From: a virus
Lineage: Duplodnaviria; Heunggongvirae; Uroviricota; Caudoviricetes
DNA length: 20,713 nt
Direction: 5' to 3' (one strand)
IMG/VR virus record: IMGVR_UViG_2537562021_000003
Span: 1-20,713 of that record
The notes beneath the pieces are model-generated. The model searched no databases and had not been told where the DNA came from. It saw only the letters and a program-made list of their open reading frames with translations. The position numbers were made by a program, and so were the translations under genes. This document shows, piece after piece, positions 4,804-16,700 of this stretch. Position 1 is the first letter of the stretch. Every line of letters starts with the position of its first letter.

Positions 4804-5657
4804 GCACCATCCTGAAATGGGCGGGAAATAAAACCGCCATTATGTCCGAACTGAAAAAACACCTTCCTGCTGGCCCGCGACTGGTTGAACCTTTCGCGGG
4901 TTCCTGTGCTGTGATGATGGAGACGGATTACCCCAGCTATCTGGTTGCGGATATTAATCCTGATTTAATCAACCTCTATAAAAAGGTTGCTGCTGATTGT
5001 GAATCGTTTATATCTCGCGCTAGAGTTTTATTTGAGATCGCAAACAGGGAGGTGGCTTATTACAACATAAGGCAGGAGTTTAATTACTCCACTGAAATTA
5101 CTGATTTCATGAAAGCGGTATATTTCCTGTATCTCAATCGTCACGGTTACCGTGGTTTATGTCGCTATAACAAGAGCGGGCATTTCAACATTCCCTACGG
5201 TAATTATAAAAATCCGTATTTCCCTGAAAAAGAAATTCGCGCATTTGCAGAAAAGGCCCAGCGAGCAACGTTTATCTGCGCCAGCTTTGATGAAACGCTG
5301 GCGATCTTGAAGGCGGGGGATGTGGTGTATTGCGATCCGCCGTATGACGGTACGTTTTCCGGCTATCACACTGATGGTTTCACTGAAGATGACCAGTATC
5401 ACCTGGCATCTGTTCTTGAACATCGGTCATCAGAAGGACATCCGGTCATTGTTTCTAACAGTGACACATCCCTGATCCGTTCGCTGTATCGCAATTTTAC
5501 TCACCACTACATCAAGGCAAAACGCAGCATCGGTGTGGCAGCTGGCGAGGGTAAATCAGCAACAGAAATCATTGCTGTTTCCGGGCCGCGCTGCTGGGTG
5601 GGATTTGATTATTCGCGTGGCGTGGATAGTTCTGCCGTGTACGGAGTACGTGCATGA
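4800..5657 (+). CDS. dam: DNA adenine methyltransferase (Dam-like, orphan)
   Basis: [17 protein letters not shown] and the DPPY motif in [11 protein letters not shown] at 4800 with SD GGAGGTG; ATGA overlaps with the neighbours on both sides. The track's longer ORF starts at 4740. Confidence 0.85.
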
Positions 5658-8068
5658 GCCATGCCGATATGAACAACTGCTGCGGCTTTAACGAGGCTGC
5701 CGCATCGTTCTCATGGAACAGCCCGAAAAAGGCCATTAACCCTTATCTGGACCCGGCGGAAGTTGCGCCGGTTTCTGCGCTTTCAAACCTGATCACTCTG
5801 TACGCTGCCGATAACGAGCAGGAACAGCTGCGCCGCGAGGCACTGAGTGATCAGGTCTGGGAGCGTTATTTCTTTAATGAATCCCGTGATCCTGTCCAGC
5901 GCGAAATGGAGCAGGATAAGCTCATTAGTCGGGCAAAGCTGGCGCATGAGCAGCAGCGTTTTAATCCAGATATGGTCATTCTGGCGGACGTCAATGCCCA
6001 GCCTTCCCATATCAGCAAGCCGCTGATGCAACGTATTGAATACTTCAGCAGCCTGGGCAGGCCAAAGGCTTATTCCCGCTATTTGCGTGAGACGATTAAG
6101 CCATGTCTGGAACGACTGGAGCATGTACGCGACAGTCAGCTATCCGCTTCTTTTCGCTTTATGGCAAGCCATGAAGGGCTGGATGGCCTGCTTATCCTGC
6201 CTGAAATGAGTCAGGATCAGGTGAAGCGCCTGTCTACCCTTGTCGCTGCGCATATGAGCATGTGCCTTGATGCAGCTTGTGGTGATTTGTATGCCACCGA
6301 TGACGTTAAGCCAGAAGAAATCCGCAAGACATGGGAAAAGGTGGCAGCGGAAACCCTGCGTCTGGATGTTATCCCGCCTGCGTTTGAGCAACTCCGTCGG
6401 AAAAGAAACCGCCGTAAACCCGTGCCCTATGAACTCATTCCGGGTTCGCTGGCGCGTATGTTGTGCGCTGACTGGTGGTACCGGAAATTATGGAAGATGC
6501 GTTGCGAATGGCGGGAAGAGCAGTTGCGCGCTGTCTGCCTGGTCAGCAAAAAAGCATCTCCTTATGTCAGCTATGAAGCCGTGATGCATAAACGTGAGCA
6601 GCGCCGTAAGTCGCTGGAGTTTTTCCGTTCTCATGAACTGGTGAACGAAGACGGCGACACGCTGGACATGGAGGATGTGGTAAACGCCAGCAGCAGCAAC
6701 CCTGCGCATCGCCGCAATGAGATGATGGCCTGTGTTAAAGGTCTGGAACTTATCGCGGAAATGCGCGGTGACTGCGCCGTTTTCTACACCATCACCTGTC
6801 CGTCACGTTTCCATTCCACGCTAAATAACGGCAGACCCAACCCGAACTGGACAAATGCGACGGTAAGACAAAGCAGTGATTATTTGGTCGGCATGTTTGC
6901 TGCATTTCGTAAGGCGATGCACAAAGCCGGATTGCGCTGGTATGGCGTGCGGGTGGCTGAGCCGCATCATGACGGTACAGTTCACTGGCACCTGTTGTGT
7001 TTTATGCGCAAAAAAGACCGCCGCGCCATCACTGCATTACTGCGTAAGTTTGCCATCCGTGAAGACCGCGAGGAGCTGGGCAATAACACGGGGCCGCGCT
7101 TTAAGTCTGAGTTGATTAACCCGCGCAAAGGAACGCCGACAAGCTACATCGCGAAATATATCAGTAAGAACATTGACGGGCGTGGTCTGGCTGGCGAGAT
7201 CAGCAAGGAAACGGGTAAATCCCTGCGTGATAACGCTGAATACGTGAATGCCTGGGCGTCTCTGCATCGTGTTCAGCAATTCCGCTTCTTTGGCATTCCG
7301 GGGCGTCAGGCTTACCGTGAACTGCGATTGCTGGCTGGTCAGGCGGCAAGGCAACAGGGTGACAAAAAAGCAGGTGCGCCGGTACTGGATAACCCGCGCC
7401 TTGATGCAATCCTGGCTGCTGCTGATGCTGGTTGTTTTGCCACCTACATCATGAAGCAGGGCGGCGTACTGGTTCCCCGTAAATATCACCTCATCAGAAC
7501 TGCTTATGAAATCAACGAAGAGCCGACCGCCTATGGCGATCACGGCATTCGTATTTATGGCATCTGGTCACCTATTGCAGAGGGCAAGATCTGCACTCAT
7601 GCCGTGAAGTGGAAAATGGTTCGTAAGGCCGTTGACGTTCAGGAGGCGGCAGCCGACCAGGGCGCTTGCGCCCCTTGGACTCGTGGCAATAACTGTCCCC
7701 TTGCTGAAAATTTGAACCAACAGGAGAAAGATAAATCAGCTGATGGGGACCCCAGAACGGACTTTACCCGCATGGATGACAAGGAGTTGCACGATTACCT
7801 GCACAGTATGAACAAAAAGGAGCGCCGGGAACTGGCTGCAAGGTTACGTCTGGTGAAACCGAAACGGCGTAGAGACTACAAACAGCGAATTACAGACCAT
7901 CAACGACAGCAGCTCGTCTATGAACTGAAATCCAGAGGATTTGATGGCAGCGAGAAAGAGGTCGATTTACTCCTTCGCGGCGGCAGTATTCCGTCAGGAG
8001 CAGGCCTGCGTATCTTCTATCGGAACCAGCGTTTGCAGGAAGATGATAAGTGGCGGAACCTGTATTAA
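5654..8068 (+). CDS. A: Replication initiation endonuclease, P2 gene A / 186 RepA family
   Basis: 804 aa; [22 protein letters not shown] and YIAKYISK match the HUH/tyrosine rolling-circle signatures of gpA. Confidence 0.85.
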
Positions 8069-8221: not shown

Positions 8222-8410
8222 ATGCAGGACTATTTTTTGGAGTCTTTGAAGCTCCAGCGCATTGATTTTTTTCTTAAGCTTGTAGCGGCTAGTGAGTGTA
8301 GTGATGAAGAGAAGGGGCTGGCTCTGCAGTGGGTTTCTGAATTGACTGATGAACTCATGGCAAAAATCAGAAGCCACGAATACAACCGCTCAATGGATGT
8401 CATCAGCTGA
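8222..8410 (+). CDS. Small SOS-controlled protein, candidate antirepressor N-terminal part (Tum-like by position)
   Basis: 62 aa with strong SD AGGAGG at 8212..8217; its stop overlaps the SD of the DinI-like gene. Confidence 0.55.
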   Translation: MQDYFLESLKLQRIDFFLKLVAASECSDEEKGLALQWVSELTDELMAKIRSHEYNRSMDVIS

Positions 8411-8420
8411 GGTGACTTTT

Positions 8421-8654
8421 ATGCGCATTGAAATAATGATCGATAAAGAGCAGAAGATTAGCCAGTCTACCTTGGACGCCCTTGAATCCGAGCTTTACCG
8501 CAATCTGCGCCCCCTGTATCCCAAAACGGTAATCCGTATCCGTAAAGGTAGCTCTAACGGTGTGGAACTGACCGGACTGCAACTGGACGAAGAAAGAAAA
8601 CAAGTGATGAAAATTATGCAGAAGGTGTGGGAAGACGACAGCTGGCTGCATTGA
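8421..8654 (+). CDS. DinI-family protein
   Basis: 77 aa; MRIEIMIDKEQ...IRKGSSNGVELTGL...VMKIMQKVWEDDSW parallels E. coli DinI as I recall it. SD GAGGTG at 8409..8414. Confidence 0.75.
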   Translation: MRIEIMIDKEQKISQSTLDALESELYRNLRPLYPKTVIRIRKGSSNGVELTGLQLDEERKQVMKIMQKVWEDDSWLH

Positions 8655-8707: not shown

Positions 8708-8741
8708 GAGGCGATGTCAATCAGATATCGCCTTGTTTTTT
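8708..8741 (+). terminator. Candidate intrinsic terminator after the DinI-like gene
   Basis: Stem AGGCGAT (8709..8715) / ATCGCCT (8727..8733) then TTGTTTTTT; the loop is long (11 nt), so weak. Confidence 0.4.
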
Positions 8742-8767
8742 GTCAAGAAAAGAATAATAGGCTAAAA

Positions 8768-9445
8768 ATGAAAATTAATAATGTAGCGTTACCAATATCT
8801 CTTGCTGTAATCCTAACTGGTTGCGTGCCACATGCTTCTAACCGAAATATCACTGCTATTGAAGTGGTGAAGCCTGCTATTGGGCAAAGTGCTACCGCCT
8901 ACATGGGCGATCCCATTATCACATCTGCTACTGGATTTAAAACGGACGTACTAGAACTTGGTGCGGCTAATGGTGCATTGTCTTCTATCGCTGCTGGTAC
9001 ATATTGCAGTGAGGGGAATGGAATTTACCGCAATTATCATAACCCTCAAGCTGTTGCGTTAAAAAATCTCTATGGGCAAATCGGTAACTATGTTGATTAT
9101 GTTAGTTACGATGCTGCAAAAAATGAGATATCACCGCCAAATGGTACTTCTTATACTGCATCAGAAATTTCTATCAAACGTGTTCCTGATGGGCTGTGTC
9201 GAGTTAGTAACTCATTGGTTAAGACTATCGAATACAATGGAAATGCAGGCGGTGTAATGAAGTTCACCTATCGTGAATTTGCAAACGATATGGCTCGTGC
9301 AGCATTTACAACAGATTTTTCTGTAGATTCTAAGGGAAGTGACGTTATCGCTTACAAAGGTGCCAAGTTCAAAGTGAACAAGGCTGATAACTCGTCTATT
9401 TCTTATACAATTATTTCTGGCTTTGACAAGGCTGTCACGTTCTAG
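8768..9445 (+). CDS. Lipoprotein of unknown function (cargo)
   Basis: MKINNVALPISLAVILTGC is a signal peptide with lipobox LTGC; AT-rich codon usage. The track's upstream start at 8714 lies inside the terminator hairpin. Confidence 0.65.
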   Translation: MKINNVALPISLAVILTGCVPHASNRNITAIEVVKPAIGQSATAYMGDPIITSATGFKTDVLELGAANGALSSIAAGTYCSEGNGIYRNYHNPQAVALKNLYGQIGNYVDYVSYDAAKNEISPPNGTSYTASEISIKRVPDGLCRVSNSLVKTIEYNGNAGGVMKFTYREFANDMARAAFTTDFSVDSKGSDVIAYKGAKFKVNKADNSSISYTIISGFDKAVTF

Positions 9446-9548
9446 GTTTCACGCTTACTGAGTATGTTACGATTTTGCACATTCTGCATAAACGCGCATG
9501 TCTATGCTGCATGAGATCGCATGATCGTTTGAGGATCTTTTGTGTTAA

Positions 9549-9574
9549 GGCCCGCCAGTTCTGGCGGGCTTTTG
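9549..9574 (+). terminator. Intrinsic terminator downstream of the lipoprotein gene
   Basis: GCCCGCCAG / CTGGCGGGC 9-bp inverted repeat followed by TTTT. Confidence 0.6.
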
Positions 9575-9618
9575 CGTAGATCATGCAGGTGCATGAAAAC
9601 CACTACATAAAGCGGGCA

Positions 9619-9637
9619 GGCGTGGCGGGGATACGAG
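9619..9637. other. cos-like packaging site (P2/186-type cohesive-end sequence)
   Basis: GGCGTGGCGGGGATACGAG: the first 13 nt match the 186 cohesive end as I recall it (GGCGTGGCGGGGAAAGCAT). GC-rich patch between accessory genes and the portal gene. Confidence 0.45.
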
Positions 9638-9864
9638 CGCGCGCCGCGGGTTGAAATAGTAAAATTCACTTAGCCTCAGGCCCGCTGATGGTTTTCTTCT
9701 GAAAGGGAGGGCGCGTTTTTGTGCAATCTTGTTTGAAGGGATTTAAATAAATGTTGAATGTGTTCCGGAGTTGGCTGTAGATTTAGTGTTCTGCCACAAG
9801 TTGCAGTGATAGGTAGCAAACCTTTAAAAGGTTCTGCTATTGTTTCATTAAAGATTTATAGTCT

Positions 9865-10464
9865 TTGTCCGAAAATGACATTAAAGTAGTCGCCTTTAAT
9901 GTCGTAAGCATGAAGGACAGAGAATTGAACTTAGAGCAGATTGCCAGTCAAAGTATAAGTAACCTTCAGTTTCTCCTCGATACTTTGAAGATGCCGTTGG
10001 CTGTTGGTCCAATCAGTGATGAAGACTATGTGATCCTGACCACAGGATACGCTCAGCTAGAATGGGATTATGGTTTTTCTCGGTTTGGCAATCGAAGTGA
10101 TAAGTTTGAATTTTGTTTGAAGCTCCTTGCGGGGCCACTTAGGCATATCCCTTCTGGCGCAGCTATGTGCACCTTTGACGAGGACGCTGGAGTCATAGAG
10201 ATCCATTTTGTGGAATCTTTTGTGAAAGATGATGACGTAGAGCACCCTCTTTACGGCAACATGTTCATGGTTACATTGTGGGCGGTATATCTTTTTGGTA
10301 GCGCGGTTGGGTGTCAAGAGATTCGGATCCCTGAAGCCCTGAATCAAAAAGTTGCTGACCACTATAAAAAATTTGGTTTTAAAGGTGATATAAGCTTGCT
10401 TTCGGCACCTTTTGCTACAATAACTGATGTAGTAAGACGCTACATTACTTCTAAGAAACAGTAG
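9865..10464 (+). CDS. Hypothetical cargo protein; C-terminus possibly GNAT-like
   Basis: 199-aa ORF from TTG 9865 (or 184 aa from ATG 9910); no strong SD for either. IRIPEALNQKVADHYKKFGF resembles GNAT motif B; no clear motif A. Confidence 0.5.
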   Translation: MSENDIKVVAFNVVSMKDRELNLEQIASQSISNLQFLLDTLKMPLAVGPISDEDYVILTTGYAQLEWDYGFSRFGNRSDKFEFCLKLLAGPLRHIPSGAAMCTFDEDAGVIEIHFVESFVKDDDVEHPLYGNMFMVTLWAVYLFGSAVGCQEIRIPEALNQKVADHYKKFGFKGDISLLSAPFATITDVVRRYITSKKQ

Positions 10465-10474
10465 ATAAATTTTT

Positions 10475-10496
10475 GCGCAGTGCTACAATGCTGCGC
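10475..10496 (+). promoter_or_regulatory. Extended -10 promoter (TGCTACAAT) inside a 6-bp-arm inverted repeat
   Basis: GCGCAG (10475..10480), TGCTACAATG, CTGCGC (10491..10496), about 50 nt upstream of the 59-aa ORF. Confidence 0.45.
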
Positions 10497-10543
10497 CAAA
10501 CATCCACCACCGGATGATGAGGCTTGACCTCTAAGAGGAAATC

Positions 10544-10723
10544 ATGACTATGACGCATAGTGACAAGAAAGCTCAGAAGCATTACTCAGTATCTGATGTT
10601 TTCAGCCGTATGGGCGTCGCGATGGAAGAACTACTTCAAGCGGCCCCACATATGATGCAGGACTGCAAATTTGAAGGAAATGAGCTGCATGGTAAGCTCA
10701 AAGAAAAGCAGAAAGCTGCTTAA
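10544..10723 (+). CDS. Small hypothetical protein (59 aa), not in the ORF track
   Basis: My own translation: MTMTHSDKKAQKHYSVSDVFSRMGVAMEELLQAAPHMMQDCKFEGNELHGKLKEKQKAA. SD AAGAGGA at 10533..10539; terminator follows. Confidence 0.5.
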   Translation: MTMTHSDKKAQKHYSVSDVFSRMGVAMEELLQAAPHMMQDCKFEGNELHGKLKEKQKAA

Positions 10724-10747
10724 TTCCATGAAATGCGTTTTGCATGA

Positions 10748-10771
10748 AGCCCGGTAATACCGGGCTTTTTT
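10748..10771 (+). terminator. Intrinsic terminator between the convergent 59-aa ORF and Q
   Basis: AGCCCGG TAATA CCGGGCT followed by TTTTTT. Confidence 0.7.
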
Positions 10772-10778
10772 ATGCTTG

Positions 10779-11816
10779 CTAGTCAGTATTAAGCTCATAT
10801 GGATTGAATCGGACTACCTCTTCACCAAGCCATTCATTTAGCTCCAGCAATCGCTTTTGTAACGGTACTATTTCGTTTCTTGTGAAGACGCGACTGGCCT
10901 TTTCCACATCCCCAAAACCGCCGGTATTGTTGGGAATGATACCCATCATTTGCGGCGGCACACGATGCGCCGCCATCATGTCGTCCCGGCTCACGTTCTT
11001 GATATTCAGGAACTCATCCTTCGCCGCCACTTCTGACAACGGGATAATCTGAAGCCCATCCTTTTTGCCGTTAGGCGAGTACATAAACAGGTTACGGAAG
11101 TTACCAGGACCTTTGGCACTTTTCATTGCGTTGCGGAGGTTGTTCACATCCTCCTGGTTCTGCGCGGCGTCGGTCATGTACATGATGAAGCCCGCATGGC
11201 TGCCGTTAATGTAATACTTCCGGCGGAACAGCGTGGCGGACTCGTTGAGCAGGGCTGACGGAATGGCAGAAAGATAACCGGGCAGGCCGTAGATCTCCTG
11301 GTTGATGTCCGGCTCCATCAGATGAAAAATGCTGCCTTTCGTGAACTGATACGGCTGGGTTGTCATACCGTATTGCACAAACCAGTAGGTATCCAGGTCT
11401 AACCCGCGTCGGGTGTATTTTGCCAGAGCAGGCTCAAGGGCTATAACTTCACCGAAGCGGTTCGTGCGTTTCTCCAGGTAGGCGTTACCAAAAACCAGAA
11501 AGTCCTGTACAAAACGCGAAAAAGCCTGCTGGCTGAGCAGCGGGTGAGGGATGTAGGTGCTGGTCAGAATGTTGCACTTCACTGCAATCGGTGAGCTATG
11601 ATGTATGGCGGCGCGGAAGGTTCGCGCCAGTCCGTCGAAACTCACAGGCAGCTCATACCAACGATCCATCTGTACGCATTCCACATAGTCCAGCAGTTCG
11701 CGGCGGTCCAGAACAGGAACGGGATCACCGAAGCTGAATGCTTCGGCTGAAGTCTGGCTTTTATGCTGGATCTGTTTCGTCGACGCAGCGCGGTTCTTCT
11801 TACTCTTTCCCATCAA
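10779..11816 (-). CDS. Q: Portal protein, P2 gpQ family
   Basis: 345 aa (P2 Q is about the same size), directly followed on the same strand by the terminase ORF. Confidence 0.8.
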   Translation of the reverse strand: MMGKSKKNRAASTKQIQHKSQTSAEAFSFGDPVPVLDRRELLDYVECVQMDRWYELPVSFDGLARTFRAAIHHSSPIAVKCNILTSTYIPHPLLSQQAFSRFVQDFLVFGNAYLEKRTNRFGEVIALEPALAKYTRRGLDLDTYWFVQYGMTTQPYQFTKGSIFHLMEPDINQEIYGLPGYLSAIPSALLNESATLFRRKYYINGSHAGFIMYMTDAAQNQEDVNNLRNAMKSAKGPGNFRNLFMYSPNGKKDGLQIIPLSEVAAKDEFLNIKNVSRDDMMAAHRVPPQMMGIIPNNTGGFGDVEKASRVFTRNEIVPLQKRLLELNEWLGEEVVRFNPYELNTD

Positions 11817-13000
11817 AAAATCTCCACAATATTGCTGGTATTGGCGGACTCGCCCTGCAGCGGTTCGTTAAACAGTGCGTGCATTGTTGCCCAGGCCAGA
11901 TCGGCATGGCTGGCTTCTTCGCTGCGGCTGGCTTCATAGGTCGGGCGGTTGCCACTGGCAGTGGTAGCGCGACGGATTGCCATAAATGACTGCGCAATGT
12001 CGGTGTGCCCGGCGTCAAACTCCAGGCGGCGGTGGCTGATAATGTCGTAGGCCTTGAGTACCAGGGCGTTTTTAACGTTGGGGTTGTAGACAAACTCCCG
12101 GACGGCAGGAAAAAACGCTTTCACGTTCTCGTAAACCCCGTGACCGACGCCGGTCGAGTCGATGCCGATATAGGTCACGTTATACTGTTCGGTCAGTTTT
12201 TTGATGGCGTCAGCCTGGGCGCGAAAGTCCATTCCGCGCCACTGGTGACGCTCAAGAATGCGGAACTTGCCGCCCGGCACGGCTGGCGGAGCCACCACCA
12301 CGCATCCGGCGCTGTCACCGTTTTGCGTACCTTTTGCCGGGTCATAACCGATCCACACTTCGCGCCAGCCAAACGGGCGCAGCGCCAGTGCATGAAAGTC
12401 GGTCCAGACTTCCCAGCTGTCCACCATGCACGCCTGCAGCTCGCTGAGCGGGAACACGGACGCGAGATCGTCCACGAACTCACACATCAGCAGGTTCTGG
12501 TATTCGTCCGGGCTGTACTCCATGCGCAACTGGTCAAGGTCGAACAGGTTACAGCCGCCGCGCACCGCATCTTCCACAGTGACTATCTGGCGGTACTGCC
12601 CGTCTGCGCACAGCAGGCCGGGGGCCAGATTGCTGTGGGACAGGTCGATGTCCACCTTATCGGCTTTGTTGCGCCCTCGGTTGAACAGCGCACCGGACCA
12701 GAACGGATAAGCACTGTGTGTCAGGCTGGATGGCGTGGAAAAATAGGTTTGTCGCCATTTTTTGTGAATAGCCATACCGGAAGCCACTTTGCGCAGCTCC
12801 TGGAATTTCGGTATCCAGAAATATTCATCCAGATACAGGTTGCCGTGGTAACTCTGGGCCGTGCGGGCATTGGTGCCGAGGAAGTACAGCGTGGCCCCGT
12901 TAGGAAGCACCATCGGATCGCCTTTCAGCTCCACCTCCACTTCTTTGGCGAAGTCGATGATGTACTGCTTAAAGACGTGGGCCTGAGCCTTGCTGGCGGA
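11813..13000 (-). pseudogene. P: Terminase large subunit (gpP) remnant lacking its N-terminal part
   Basis: About 395 codons of protein-like reading frame with a Walker-B-like LYLDEYFWI but no Walker A; a full gpP (about 590 aa) would have to start near 13585, which is occupied by FII/E coding sequence. Confidence 0.7.
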
Positions 13001-13256
13001 AAGGAAAATCTGGTTACGCCCGGTTACCGGAGAAGTGCAGGCCGTGGAGCTTGTGGTGCGTGGACGTCACAAAGAAGTGGATTCCGGCGAGTGGAAGACG
13101 GGCGAAAGCAACACCACCAAAGTGACCAGTACCAACAGCTACGCGAAGCTGACCATCAATGGTGAGGTGCTCTATGAAGTGGACCTTATCAACATGGTGG
13201 AAATTGTGGACGGTGTGGACCTGATGGAAGCGCACCGCAACGCCCTCGGCCTCTGA
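12987..13256 (+). pseudogene. Tail tube (gpFII) C-terminal fragment
   Basis: ...TGEVQAVELVVRGRHKEVDSGEWKTGE...INGEVLYEVDLINMVEIVDGVDLMEAHRNALGL resembles the FII C-terminus; in-frame stop at 12984..12986 and no N-terminal half. Confidence 0.55.
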
Positions 13257-13747: not shown

Positions 13748-16700
13748 TAATAACCTGCGCCTTCAGGTCATTCTTAATGCGGTTGACAAACTCACCCGCC
13801 CATTCCGTGCTGCACAGGCCAGTTCGAAAGAGCTGGCTGGCGCAATTCAGAATACCCGAAACAGCCTCAAAGAACTGAATAAGCAGGCTGGCAGAATTGA
13901 TGAATTTCGCAAGACGCGCTCGCAACTAGCCATAACAGCCAACAACCTGAACGCAGCCCGCGAAGAGGCGGCAAAACTCGCCACACAATTTGCTGCCACT
14001 AACAGGCCAACCGCCGCGCAGGCAAAGTTATTCAGTCAGGCCAAAACACGAGTGCAGGAACTTCAGCAGACCTATAACGGCTTGTTGGGGGCGGTCCAGA
14101 GACAACGTCAGGCACTTAAAGAATCAGGGATTGATACCAGACAACTCAGTAGTGCCCAGCGAGAACTTAAGAAAAATGCTGAAGAAACAAGGCAGGCACT
14201 GGAGGGCCAGCAAAAAGCACTTAAACGTCTGGGTGAACAACAGGCACGGATGAACGCTGCCAGAGAACAATACTCAAGACGGCTTGAAGTGCGCGATCGC
14301 ATCGCAGGAGCCGGAGCCACTACCACGGCTGCAGGGCTGGCAATGGGTGCGCCAGTGATGGCGGCAGTAAAAAGCTATACCAGCATGGAAGATGCCATGA
14401 AAGGTGTGGCAAAGCAGGTCAATGGTCTGCGTGACGATAATGGCAACCGCACTGCACGTTTTTATGAAATGCAGGATGCCATCAAGGCTGCCAGCGAACA
14501 GTTGCCGATGGAAAACGGTGCGGTGGACTTCGCTGCACTGGTTGAAGGTGGTGCGCGCATGAACGTCGCAAACCCTGACGACAGCTGGGAAGACCAGAAA
14601 CGTGACCTGCTGGCCTTCGCCAGTACGGCAGCAAAGGCGGCAACAGCCTTTGAGCTGCCAGCGGATGAACTGTCAGAAAGTCTGGGGAAAATCGCCCAGC
14701 TCTACAAAATACCTACCCGCAATATTGAACAGCTCGGCGATGCGCTGAACTATCTGGATGATAACGCCATGTCGAAAGGGGCGGACATCATTGATGTGAT
14801 GCAACGTCTGGGCGGTGTGGCTGACCGTCTGGATTATCGTAAAGCGGCGGCACTGGGTTCCACCTTTCTGACACTGGGCGCTGCGCCGGAGGTTGCAGCC
14901 AGTGCAGCAAACGCGATGGTGCGTGAATTGTCCATTGCCACCATGCAAAGCAAGAGTTTCTTTGAAGGGATGAATCTGCTGAAACTCAATCCTGAAGTGA
15001 TTGAAAAGCAGATGACGAAGGATGCGATGGGAACTATCCAGCGTGTGCTGGAGAAGGTGAACGCACTGCCGCAGGACAAGCGTCTGTCTGCCATGACCAT
15101 GTTGTTTGGTAAAGAGTTTGGTGATGACGCGGCGAAACTGGCAAACAACCTGCCGGAACTGCAGCGCCAGCTAAAACTGACAGCGGGCAATGATGCGCTC
15201 GGTTCCATGCAGAAAGAATCCGACATCAACAAAGACTCACTTTCTGCTCAGTGGTTGCTGGTCAAAACCGGAGCGCAGAACACCTTCAGCAGCCTGGGCG
15301 AAACGCTGCGCCAGCCGCTGATGGATATTCTGTACACGGTGAAAAGCATCATGGGGGCGTTGCGCCGCTGGGTGGAAGCTAACCCGGAACTGACAGGCAC
15401 ACTGATGAAAGTAGCGGCTGTTGTGGCTGCGGTTACCGTAGGCCTCGGCACCTTAGCGGTGACGCTGGCTGCAGTGCTGGGGCCGCTGGCAGTCATCCGT
15501 CTGGGATTCTCTGTGCTGGGTATCAAAACGTTACCTTCCGTTACGGCAGCAGTAACACGAACCAGCAGCGCGTTGTCCTGGTTAGCTGGCGCTCCACTGG
15601 CACTGCTGCGACGCGGGCTTGCTTCATCGGGCAACGCAGCGGGTTTACTTACTGCGCCGTTGTCGTCTTTGCGCCGTACGGCATCACTGACGGGAAATGT
15701 CCTGAAAACTGTAGCAGGTGCGCCGGTTGCACTTTTGCGGTCTGGATTATCCGGTTTACGTGCTGTTGCTGTGATGTTTATGAATCCTCTGGCGGTACTG
15801 CGCGGTGGACTGGTCGCCGCAGGCACGGTGCTGCGAGTACTGGCATCTGGTCCACTGGCGATGCTGCGCGTTGCCCTGTATGCCGTATCTGGTCTGTTAG
15901 GTACTCTGCTCAGTCCGATAGGTCTTGTGGTTACTGCACTGGCAGGCGTGGCGCTGGTTGTCTGGAAATACTGGCAACCCATCACCGCATTTCTCGCTGG
16001 TGTGGTGGAAGGATTCAAAGCGGCGGCAGGTCCCATCAGTGCAGCATTCGAACCACTTAAGCCTGTGTTTCAGTGGATTGGCGACAAAGTGCAGGCGTTG
16101 TGGGGCTGGTTTACTGATCTGCTGACGCCCGTTAAGTCGACCTCTGCCGAACTGCAGAGCGCAGCGGCAATGGGGCGACGATTTGGGGAGGCACTGGCGG
16201 AAGGGCTGAATATGGTCATGCATCCGCTGGACTCCCTGAAATCCGGCGTTTCCTGGTTGCTGGAGAAACTCGGCATTGTCAGTAAAGAGGCTGCAAAGGC
16301 GAAACTGCCGGAAAGCGTGACGCGTCAGCAACCTGCGACGGTGAATGCAGACGGTAAAGTGATGATGCCATCGGGTGGTTTTCCGTCATGGGGATATGGC
16401 TTTGCGGGGATGTATGACAGCGGCGGCTATATCCCGCGCGGGCAGTTCGGCATTGTCGGTGAAAACGGGCCGGAAATTGTCAACGGTCCGGCAAACGTGA
16501 CCAGCCGGAGAAATACCGCTGCACTGGCTGCGGTTGTCGCCGGAATGATGGGAGTTGCTGCCGCGCCAGCAGAGCTTCCACCGTTGCATCCTTTGGCGCT
16601 TCCCGCGAAAGGCGGTGAAGCGATGGTGAGTCGCGTAGCTGCTGTGCCGCCCGTTCACCGGATTGAGGCACCGACGCAGATCATCATCCAGACGCAGCCA

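Follow-up and report, generated by a model that had tools for sequence, protein, structure and literature searches.

A mobile phage-borne gene pair encoding a predicted GNAT-fold protein and a 59-residue partner in the cos-to-portal interval of a P2-like prophage

Introduction

The window analysed here is a stretch of 20,713 nucleotides, positions 1 to 20,713 of the IMG/VR virus record IMGVR_UViG_2537562021_000003 (Caudoviricetes), and it holds a P2-like prophage with an AT-rich cassette of two genes between the cos-like site and the portal gene Q. The first gene encodes a protein with a predicted GNAT fold, the second a protein of 59 residues. In a first-pass annotation made from the letters of the window this pair had been described as accessory cargo, expressed in the lysogen and possibly acting as toxin and regulator or in abortive infection. 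The observation has been confirmed, and its interpretation is supported as far as an analysis of sequences can go. Comparison of its copies indicates a GNAT module which is carried by phages, widespread, and so far uncharacterised, and whose small partner is obligate, and there is good comparative evidence for a toxin-antitoxin-like relation between the two genes.

The Cassette and Its Expression Signals

A query of 1.2 kb (window 9600-10800) matched with 100% identity a P2-like prophage located at ssrA in Escherichia coli WS4437A-1. The genes of this prophage are ordered int, CI, cox-like, B, Dam, and A (5654-8068), followed by three small cargo open reading frames (ORFs), the cos-like site, the GNAT/small gene pair, and Q on the minus strand. 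The cos-to-portal interval is limited on the left by a cos-like 19-mer on the plus strand (GGCGTGGCGGGGATACGAG, 9619-9637), which aligns with positions 1-19 of P2 cosL, and window 9600-9667 resembles the annotated cos sites of P2-like phages by sequence match. On the right it is flanked, outside the cassette, by Q (10779-11816, minus strand; annotated as phage portal protein in RefSeq). The AT-rich character of the module is seen in a GC fraction of 0.41-0.44 over 9800-10800 as compared to 0.51-0.62 in the portal, terminase, and tail genes. In P2 itself cosL occupies positions 1-19, the terminator tQ 160-181, and the stop codon of Q lies at 187 with no coding sequence in between. On the cos-like site, the AT-rich character, and the empty interval of P2 the first-pass annotation had been right.

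The exact limits of the mobile unit could be derived from a copy in a very different element of Pectobacterium brasiliense, which contains a D5-type primase (locus L011). Homology to this copy spans exactly 9867-10781 on the plus strand and thus delimits the two-gene cassette. A leader upstream of the GNAT gene (TCCGAAAATGACATTAAAG) is kept in four taxa. It is accompanied by an inverted repeat with arms of 10 nucleotides which are 100% complementary (GACATTAAAG / CTTTAATGTC, 9877-9903, plus strand), located just 5' of the GNAT start and only partly kept in the copy from Mixta. In Pectobacterium (L003, L004, and L012; 5539-5733, minus strand) the end of the portal gene (3') recurs upstream of the cassette as a duplicate of 58 amino acids with 86% identity, which looks like the scar of an insertion of the cassette by recombination with a donor flanked by Q.

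The program-made list gives two ORFs on the plus strand, 9865-10464 (199 amino acids from the first TTG) and 10544-10723 (59 amino acids), and RefSeq starts the larger one at ATG 9910 with 184 amino acids (WP_223417136.1). A Shine-Dalgarno sequence (SD) AAGGA at 9913-9917 precedes a TTG at 9925, and this SD together with a TTG or GTG start is kept in the copies of Mixta, Pectobacterium, and Erwinia. The in-frame sequence upstream of 9925 is not conserved, and a stop codon closes this frame in the Mixta copy. As the start at 9925 is conserved and the frame upstream of it is not, the GNAT gene most likely extends from TTG 9925 to 10464 on the plus strand and encodes 179 amino acids. The start at 9865 was rejected on the same grounds, and of the original claim of two ORFs, one with 184-199 amino acids, the ORFs stand and the length probably does not.

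No recognisable sigma-70 promoter was found for the GNAT gene inside the cassette, and the gene is probably expressed from signals of the element around it, as in copies which lie directly after cI. The small gene has a promoter-like site of its own at 10462-10489 (plus strand), with a -35 element TAGATA (10462-10467), a spacer of 16 nucleotides, and an extended -10 element TGcTACAAT (10481-10489), from which a transcript start near 10496 is predicted. TAGATA and TGnTAnAAT are invariant in five copies (E. coli, Mixta, two from Pectobacterium, Erwinia). As had been noticed in the first pass, the -10 element is placed within an inverted repeat at 10471-10500 (TTTTGCGCAG / CTGCGCCAAA, plus strand, arms 10471-10480 and 10491-10500). 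This repeat is less conserved than the -10 element and is lost in Erwinia; it is a possible operator. The 5' leader of the small gene (10501-10543, plus strand) contains a hairpin CATCC..GGATG and a GAGG..CCTC pairing (anti-SD) ahead of the SD AAGAGGA. The z-score of its fold is -1.5, which is not significant, and a regulatory role of the leader is a conjecture. An Rfam scan of 9300-10900 yielded nothing meaningful. In more distant subfamilies the intergenic spacers measure 113-196 nucleotides, and some of them have, by eye, -10-like elements beside short palindromes. A strong SD and an ATG start at the small gene stand next to the TTG start of the GNAT gene, and a weakly made effector with a separately and strongly made partner would suit the logic of a toxin-antitoxin pair. 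The module is closed, as had been described, by a strong intrinsic terminator (10746-10775, plus strand), which consists of a 10-bp stem with six G-C pairs at 10746-10768, a loop of 3 nucleotides, and a T-run.

The ratio of nonsynonymous to synonymous substitution rates (dN/dS) of 0.02-0.06 for the GNAT gene and 0.13-0.22 for the small gene indicates that both are under purifying selection. When the window is compared with the copies of Mixta (L010) and P. brasiliense (L011), nucleotide identity amounts to 65-87% in the GNAT gene and to 83-95% in the promoter, small gene, and terminator; the stretch formed by the small gene's 3' end and the terminator reaches 92-95%. In the same pairs the dS values differ about four- to sixteen-fold between GNAT and small genes. 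The small-gene half may either have been exchanged more recently or be constrained at the nucleotide level.

The GNAT-Fold Protein

The first-pass annotation could not place either protein in a named family, and this has remained so. Scans of the large protein with Pfam and NCBIfam (E≤1) and with PADLOC gave no match, and among the PHROGs it is assigned only to the unnamed phrog_4350. The family is small, confined to Enterobacterales, and almost always found in phage-derived contexts: a word-indexed search returned 29 clusters and an exhaustive profile search of 1.84 billion representatives 76 at E≤0.001. Comparison of sequence profiles with the PDB gave nothing significant (best E 0.16 for the family profile), and among 59 distant members of the family scanned with Pfam there was a single marginal match, to Acetyltransf_1 (PF00583, E 0.006).

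Structure prediction, which had been suggested in the first pass, was more informative. The AlphaFold2 model of the large protein has a pLDDT of 86 and displays the order beta1-alpha1-alpha2-beta2-4-alpha3-beta5-alpha4-beta6, so that a GNAT fold is confidently predicted. A Foldseek search places AtaT, KacT, and TacT3 among the top matches, with GmvT lower at rank 48, and TacT3, AtaT, and KacT are the nearest solved structures by two methods. The N-terminal and lysine protein acetyltransferases NatB, NatD, and Naa50 score nearly as high as the toxins, and a fold search of viral proteins in BFVD yielded generic GNATs with no closer annotated relative.

The stretch near the C-terminus which had been recognised as resembling GNAT motif B corresponds to beta5-alpha4-beta6 of the predicted fold. 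Glutamate 102 in beta4 and tyrosine 152 in alpha4 are invariant in the close family. The tyrosine is invariant in 28 close homologues, at least 90% conserved among 59 distant ones, and aligns with the tyrosine of IHIYESQGFK in diamine N-acetyltransferase (8fv0), so that the conserved alpha4 tyrosine of motif B, the general acid in GNATs, is found here by sequence alignment. The apparent lack of a clear motif A was borne out at the level of sequence. The predicted fold places a divergent, family-invariant HPLxGxM in the beta4-alpha3 loop (residues 104-117, VKDDDVEHPLYGNM), which is longer than usual, where it replaces the canonical Q/R-x-x-G-x-G/A. Proline 113, leucine 114, glycine 116, and methionine 118 are invariant; the central glycine is kept and the first and last positions of the motif are non-canonical. 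An acyl-CoA-dependent acyltransferase activity is proposed from the model. The isoelectric point is 5.06 (family range 4.3-6.1).

These structural relations raise the question whether the pair simply belongs to the GNAT-DUF1778 type II toxin-antitoxin systems (TacAT, AtaRT, KacAT, ItaRT, GmvAT), which would block translation by acetylating aminoacyl-tRNA. It shares with them a putative GNAT-fold effector of about 160-180 amino acids with its best structural matches among their toxins, a conserved tyrosine at the catalytic position, and the format of a mobile two-gene module whose partner is predicted to act by a single helix, reminiscent of the helix-mediated neutralisation by the C-terminal part of AtaR and TacA. 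In contrast to these systems, no DUF1778 or ribbon-helix-helix protein is encoded nearby, and 9600-10780 contains no other such small ORF. The partner gene is located downstream rather than upstream and has its own promoter. The protein has the motif A variant HPLxGxM, has no match to a Pfam acetyltransferase model, reaches only an E of about 0.2 against GNATs in the PDB when its family profile is used, and is acidic throughout a family that occurs in Enterobacterales only and almost only in phage-derived contexts. The true toxin-antitoxin clade of GNATs has been defined by partners of the DUF1778 or DUF4065 type (PMC9177977). Lacking a DUF1778 or ribbon-helix-helix partner, with its genes in reverse order, and unmatched by the sequence models, the cassette falls outside the group as defined, and membership is quite unlikely. 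Aminoacyl-tRNA as the target is possible by analogy and disfavoured by the charge of the protein.

The Small Protein

The small gene (10544-10723, plus strand) encodes 59 amino acids (WP_021523861.1) ending in KQKAA, the proposed labile neutraliser, that is, the antitoxin. Scans with Pfam and NCBIfam (E≤1) and with PADLOC gave no match, and the protein belongs to the unnamed phrog_2741 (E 2e-30). AlphaFold2 predicts a single helix for residues 16-39 with a pLDDT of 82-90, preceded by a disordered basic N-terminus and followed by a disordered tail of 20 residues. The tail is rich in lysine and arginine, and the protein has a conserved E-x-x-G-K motif.

A C-terminal Ala-Ala is found in 67 of about 90 cluster representatives of the small family. 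Most members without it are visibly frameshifted or truncated, and the remainder have AV, VA, or TA as their last two residues. Ahead of the terminal pair the sequence varies, with KQKAA, NKKAA, RRKAA, HRQAA, and QRIAA among the endings. In the ssrA degron it is the terminal Ala-Ala carboxylate that matters most to ClpXP, which also has other proteins of the cell with Ala-Ala ends among its substrates (PMC7652416). The basic run preceding the two alanines recalls the C-motif-2 degron of MuA, which ends in RRKKAI (PMC12723719). As the terminal alanines come together with a disordered tail and a basic run, the small protein seems built to be unstable, and it is likely a labile substrate of ClpXP.

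Linkage of the Two Genes

Starting from the GNAT gene, 20 loci were examined, and in all 20 a small-gene homologue was located 80-200 nucleotides downstream on the same strand. A search from the small-gene side led to a GNAT homologue of 177-183 amino acids directly upstream in Salmonella, Enterobacter, and Morganella. Wherever the GNAT gene was intact, so was the small gene (33 of 33 loci), and the pairing persists in phage mEp460, where the two proteins are only 39% and 34% identical.

The settings of the cassette are places which temperate phages use for accessory and defence genes. Besides the P2-like cos-Q interval (E. coli, Mixta, Pectobacterium), they include the attL end of lambdoid prophages next to int and dusA (mEp460 type; E. 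coli O157:H7, Salmonella), the position directly downstream of the cI repressor gene (Serratia symbiotica, Brenneria), which is the position of rexAB in lambda, a late-gene site of an Enterobacter prophage between DUF968/RusA and a methylase-holin block, a site between int and the tail fibre gene in Morganella, and a site downstream of the D5-type primase in an element bearing AntA. Islands contain it at smpB/ssrA beside GmrSD-like and Fic genes (Photorhabdus), beside Cas3 (Xenorhabdus), and beside the gene of a HipA-like kinase (Erwinia). Satellite-like elements and defence-type islands are among the settings. The pair moves as a unit between unrelated phage types, as expected of the accessory cargo that the first pass had taken it for. 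The claim that it is expressed in the lysogen finds support in position, for example after cI in Serratia and Brenneria, and in the small gene's own promoter.

The P2-like cargo is present in 11 of 5426 complete E. coli genomes, 1242 of which match the query at all, mostly in the cos-proximal bases. The lambdoid variant occurs in about 357 of the 5426, including O157:H7 and O111, and related copies occur in Salmonella, Enterobacter, Pectobacterium, and Photorhabdus. Among 72,556 plasmid records five contain a homologue, and four of these five have 37-44 kb, are non-mobilizable, and are suspected to be phage genomes. This near-absence from plasmids points to a role linked to phages, and plasmid addiction as the main role was rejected. 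Modification of a ribosomally synthesised peptide was also set aside, as no leader/core organisation, exporter, or tailoring gene accompanies the pair in any context.

One-Way Dependence

In about 200 further E. coli genomes the query matched only at its small-gene end. In the orphan loci examined, the GNAT gene and the intergenic region are replaced by a SocA/Panacea-domain gene and a gene of 128 or 139 amino acids. This swap at the dusA end of prophages is seen in E. coli YJ3 (L025, 2983-4184) and in L040-L045, with the right joint 13 bp before the ATG of the small gene, which is kept 40 nucleotides downstream. The 128/139-amino acid gene has no Pfam match and is not a GNAT, and the two genes are probably a PanAT-type pair with an uncharacterised toxin. 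GNAT toxins are known to exchange their antitoxin families, with partners of the DUF1778 or the DUF4065/Panacea type (PMC9177977). At dusA the Panacea pair fills the exact slot of the GNAT gene; unlike in the Panacea systems with a GNAT, the gene paired with Panacea there is of another kind, and the small protein is not a Panacea domain.

Five disrupted or shortened variants of the small gene were looked up. Three (P0195, P0191, P0176) are all in the Panacea context without a GNAT gene, and one (P0174) is in a Cronobacter phage region without a GNAT gene. The fifth (P0166, L046) is uninformative, with a GNAT gene that is also fragmented and many other genes split in the assembly. Conversely, a split (L024) or truncated (L039) GNAT gene was found beside an intact small gene. 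An intact GNAT gene with a broken small gene was not found among the loci examined. Such a one-way pattern would be expected of a GNAT protein that does harm when the small protein is missing, and of a small protein that has no use when the GNAT protein is missing. Adjacent co-directional genes with one-way co-occurrence are also what characterises type II toxin-antitoxin pairs.

That the two are unrelated accessory genes with separate functions which travel by adjacency only might be read from their separate promoters, the gap of 80-196 nucleotides, the recombination joint between them in the Panacea swap, and the sharply different nucleotide conservation of the two halves. Against such a view, they co-occur at all 33 loci with an intact GNAT gene, on many unrelated backbones and down to about 30-40% identity, and absence of the GNAT gene goes with decay of the small gene; we regard mere adjacency as very improbable.

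Proposed Mechanism and Its Alternatives

With somewhat less than even confidence, we favour the reading that the cassette is a toxin-antitoxin-like or abortive-infection pair of a new type, without a DUF1778 antitoxin and with the reverse gene order. The first gene would encode the effector, an acidic GNAT-fold acyl-CoA-dependent acyltransferase, translated weakly from its TTG start and without a recognisable promoter of its own inside the cassette. The second, with its conserved extended -10 promoter and strong SD, would supply a 59-residue protein of one amphipathic helix, disordered ends, and an Ala-Ala tail, owing to which it is likely to be degraded by ClpXP. As long as the lysogen goes on making the small protein, the acyltransferase would stay bound and inactive. 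A shut-off of host expression, such as an infecting phage may cause, would be followed by degradation of the small protein, and the freed acyltransferase would acetylate an essential target and stop the growth of cell and invader. Infection by another phage is the most plausible occasion for this release, with loss of the prophage as the alternative. Mutual binding of the proteins, toxicity, lability to ClpXP, trigger, target, and an anti-phage effect are all steps which we infer here. The scheme draws support from the fold, the conserved residues of catalytic type, the one-way dependence, the terminal alanines, mobility, and placement in hotspots, and the comparative evidence strengthens the first-pass idea of a toxin/regulator or abortive-infection pair, which is still an inference.

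A precedent for such a logic is provided by RnlAB and LsoAB, where the toxin gene comes first and is followed by an antitoxin gene that has its own promoter. Being unstable, the antitoxin is lost after phage-induced shut-off, which results in anti-phage activity, and Dmd of phage T4 acts as a phage-encoded substitute for it. The resemblance may extend to virulent phages, as a homologue of the small protein is embedded in proteins of such phages. Unlike in RnlAB and LsoAB, where the toxin is an RNase, the effector here would be an acyltransferase, and there is no relationship in sequence or fold.

Several points weigh against the favoured reading. With PADLOC-DB v2 (E≤1), a scan that the first pass had also suggested, no defence model matched either protein or the three upstream cargo ORFs. 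A DNA-binding domain is missing from the small protein, the genes stand in the opposite order to those of GNAT-DUF1778 systems, and with a gap of 80-196 nucleotides the genes are not translationally coupled. The non-canonical motif A makes acetyl-CoA binding putative only, and the acidic protein would fit poorly with a tRNA substrate of the TacT/AtaT kind. The loci form a small sample, in part selected by the analyst, the Panacea-type swap may be a single clonal event, and orphan small genes would decay in any obligate partnership, whether or not the small protein is an antitoxin.

Several of these findings would equally suit a non-toxic enzyme which acetylates a host or phage protein or a small molecule, with the small protein as its substrate, specificity adaptor, or regulator. 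This includes roles in lysogenic conversion, detoxification, or counter-defence, for which the GNAT anti-CRISPR AcrVA5 is a precedent. An acidic GNAT suits a basic protein or peptide substrate, such as the small protein might offer with its Lys/Arg-rich disordered tail and its E-x-x-G-K motif, and the motif also occurs in a protein of virulent phages that is possibly the real substrate. The structural scores of NatB, NatD, and Naa50, nearly equal to those of the toxins, suit this explanation, and strict co-occurrence with decay of the small gene in the absence of the GNAT gene would fit any obligate partnership. The one-way pattern and the loci with a broken GNAT gene beside an intact small gene are predicted by a toxin and not required for an adaptor, a conserved Ala-Ala degron on a mere cofactor is harder to explain, and the separate strong promoter of the small gene suggests a need for excess. 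On balance a non-toxic role is the main alternative and appears possible, if rather unlikely.

A Related Segment in Virulent Phages

The small protein shares, over its residues 19-56, 61% identity with residues 57-94 of a very acidic 326-amino acid protein with a proline-rich linker (phrog_11133; Klebsiella phage JustaPhage gp62, L007 2833-3813). This protein is encoded by the first gene of an operon with a Cas4-like exonuclease and a Gp2.5-like single-stranded DNA-binding protein in virulent Jedunavirus phages of Klebsiella. A similar segment of lower identity is present in Pectobacterium phage PEAT2 (Peatvirus) and Acinetobacter phage LAPP1 (related loci L008 and L009), and Pectobacterium is also a host of the cassette. 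The shared core of 38 residues comprises the helix and an E-L-H-G-K motif, and the phage segment has no terminal Ala-Ala.

Judged from this similarity the phage segment could be a mimic of the antitoxin, the target of the enzyme, or a shared binding helix. A more specific form of the toxin-antitoxin-like reading would see in the cassette a new abortive-infection system in an arms race with virulent phages. The phage segment would then be either a stable antitoxin mimic which disarms the GNAT protein, or its natural acetylation target, with the small protein as a derived pseudo-substrate inhibitor. We consider this scenario unlikely as it stands.

The Hotspot and Neighbouring Genes

The interval between gpA and gpQ is a defence hotspot of P2-like phages (PMC9122126; PMC13586616), as had been stated in the first pass, and the cassette fits its definition, with the replication gene A on one side and the portal gene Q on the other, cos beside it, and variation between related prophages. 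The locus table of Rousset et al. 2022 lists WP_021523861 within strings of hypothetical proteins, and the text and tables of that work give no sign of the GNAT/small pair being tested (PMC9122126). Literature searches for this accession, for GNAT-based defence, and for DefensePredictor together with acetyltransferase yielded neither a description of the pair nor a report of phage protection by it. The cassette thus occupies the same hotspot beside cos as the old and tin genes of P2 and the gpA-gpQ cargo of Rousset et al. 2022. It differs from old and tin, which lie on the A side of cos, in being located on the Q side, which in P2 consists of 186 non-coding bases, and shows no homology to them.

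On the A side of cos the window has a 62-amino acid ORF (8222-8410, plus strand; phrog_698) and then a gene for a DinI-like protein (8349-8654, plus strand; PF06183, E 1e-22), which together appear to be a semi-conserved start of the A-to-cos cargo region. In phage mEp460 a DinI-like gene is located beside int, close to the cassette there. An ORF of 243 amino acids follows (8714-9445, plus strand; the RefSeq start gives 225 amino acids, WP_000700647). It has a signal peptide with the lipobox LTGC and a match to phrog_1353, was without a match in Pfam or PADLOC, and is followed by a terminator at 9547-9572. Its product, which could be a surface or exclusion lipoprotein, is repeatedly present in the gpA-gpQ loci tabulated by Rousset et al. 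2022 (PMC9122126).

The prophage is defective. The gene of the terminase large subunit lacks its N-terminus (truncated according to RefSeq) and abuts a fragment of the tail tube gene at about 11813-13250, corresponding to 14214-15657 of the WS4437A-1 locus (L001). Capsid, lysis, and baseplate genes appear to have been deleted, with the cargo cassette and its neighbours still intact. To the left of the P2 integrase the prophage is bordered by genes for an HNH endonuclease, a second integrase-domain protein, and a member of the recombinase family (L001 1-3553). The GC fraction at the left end of the window is 0.33-0.38, and this looks like a second AT-rich island stacked at ssrA.

Significance

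The Q side of cos, empty in P2, also serves as a cargo slot. If the toxin-antitoxin-like reading is true, the cassette would add a third, unrelated partner type for GNAT toxins, a 59-residue helix with an Ala-Ala tail of the ClpXP type and without a DNA-binding domain. As GNAT toxins are already known to swap antitoxin families, this would not create a new category. Two genes which are now labelled hypothetical in hundreds of genomes would then have a function as well. The segment in virulent phages is a testable lead to trigger, target, or counter-defence and is of relevance for host range in phage therapy; either form of the arms-race scenario, if true, would link a specific phage protein with an immune effector of the acetyltransferase type. 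Should the toxin-antitoxin reading prove wrong, a conserved acetyltransferase with an obligate small partner would still be left, with a substrate worth finding.

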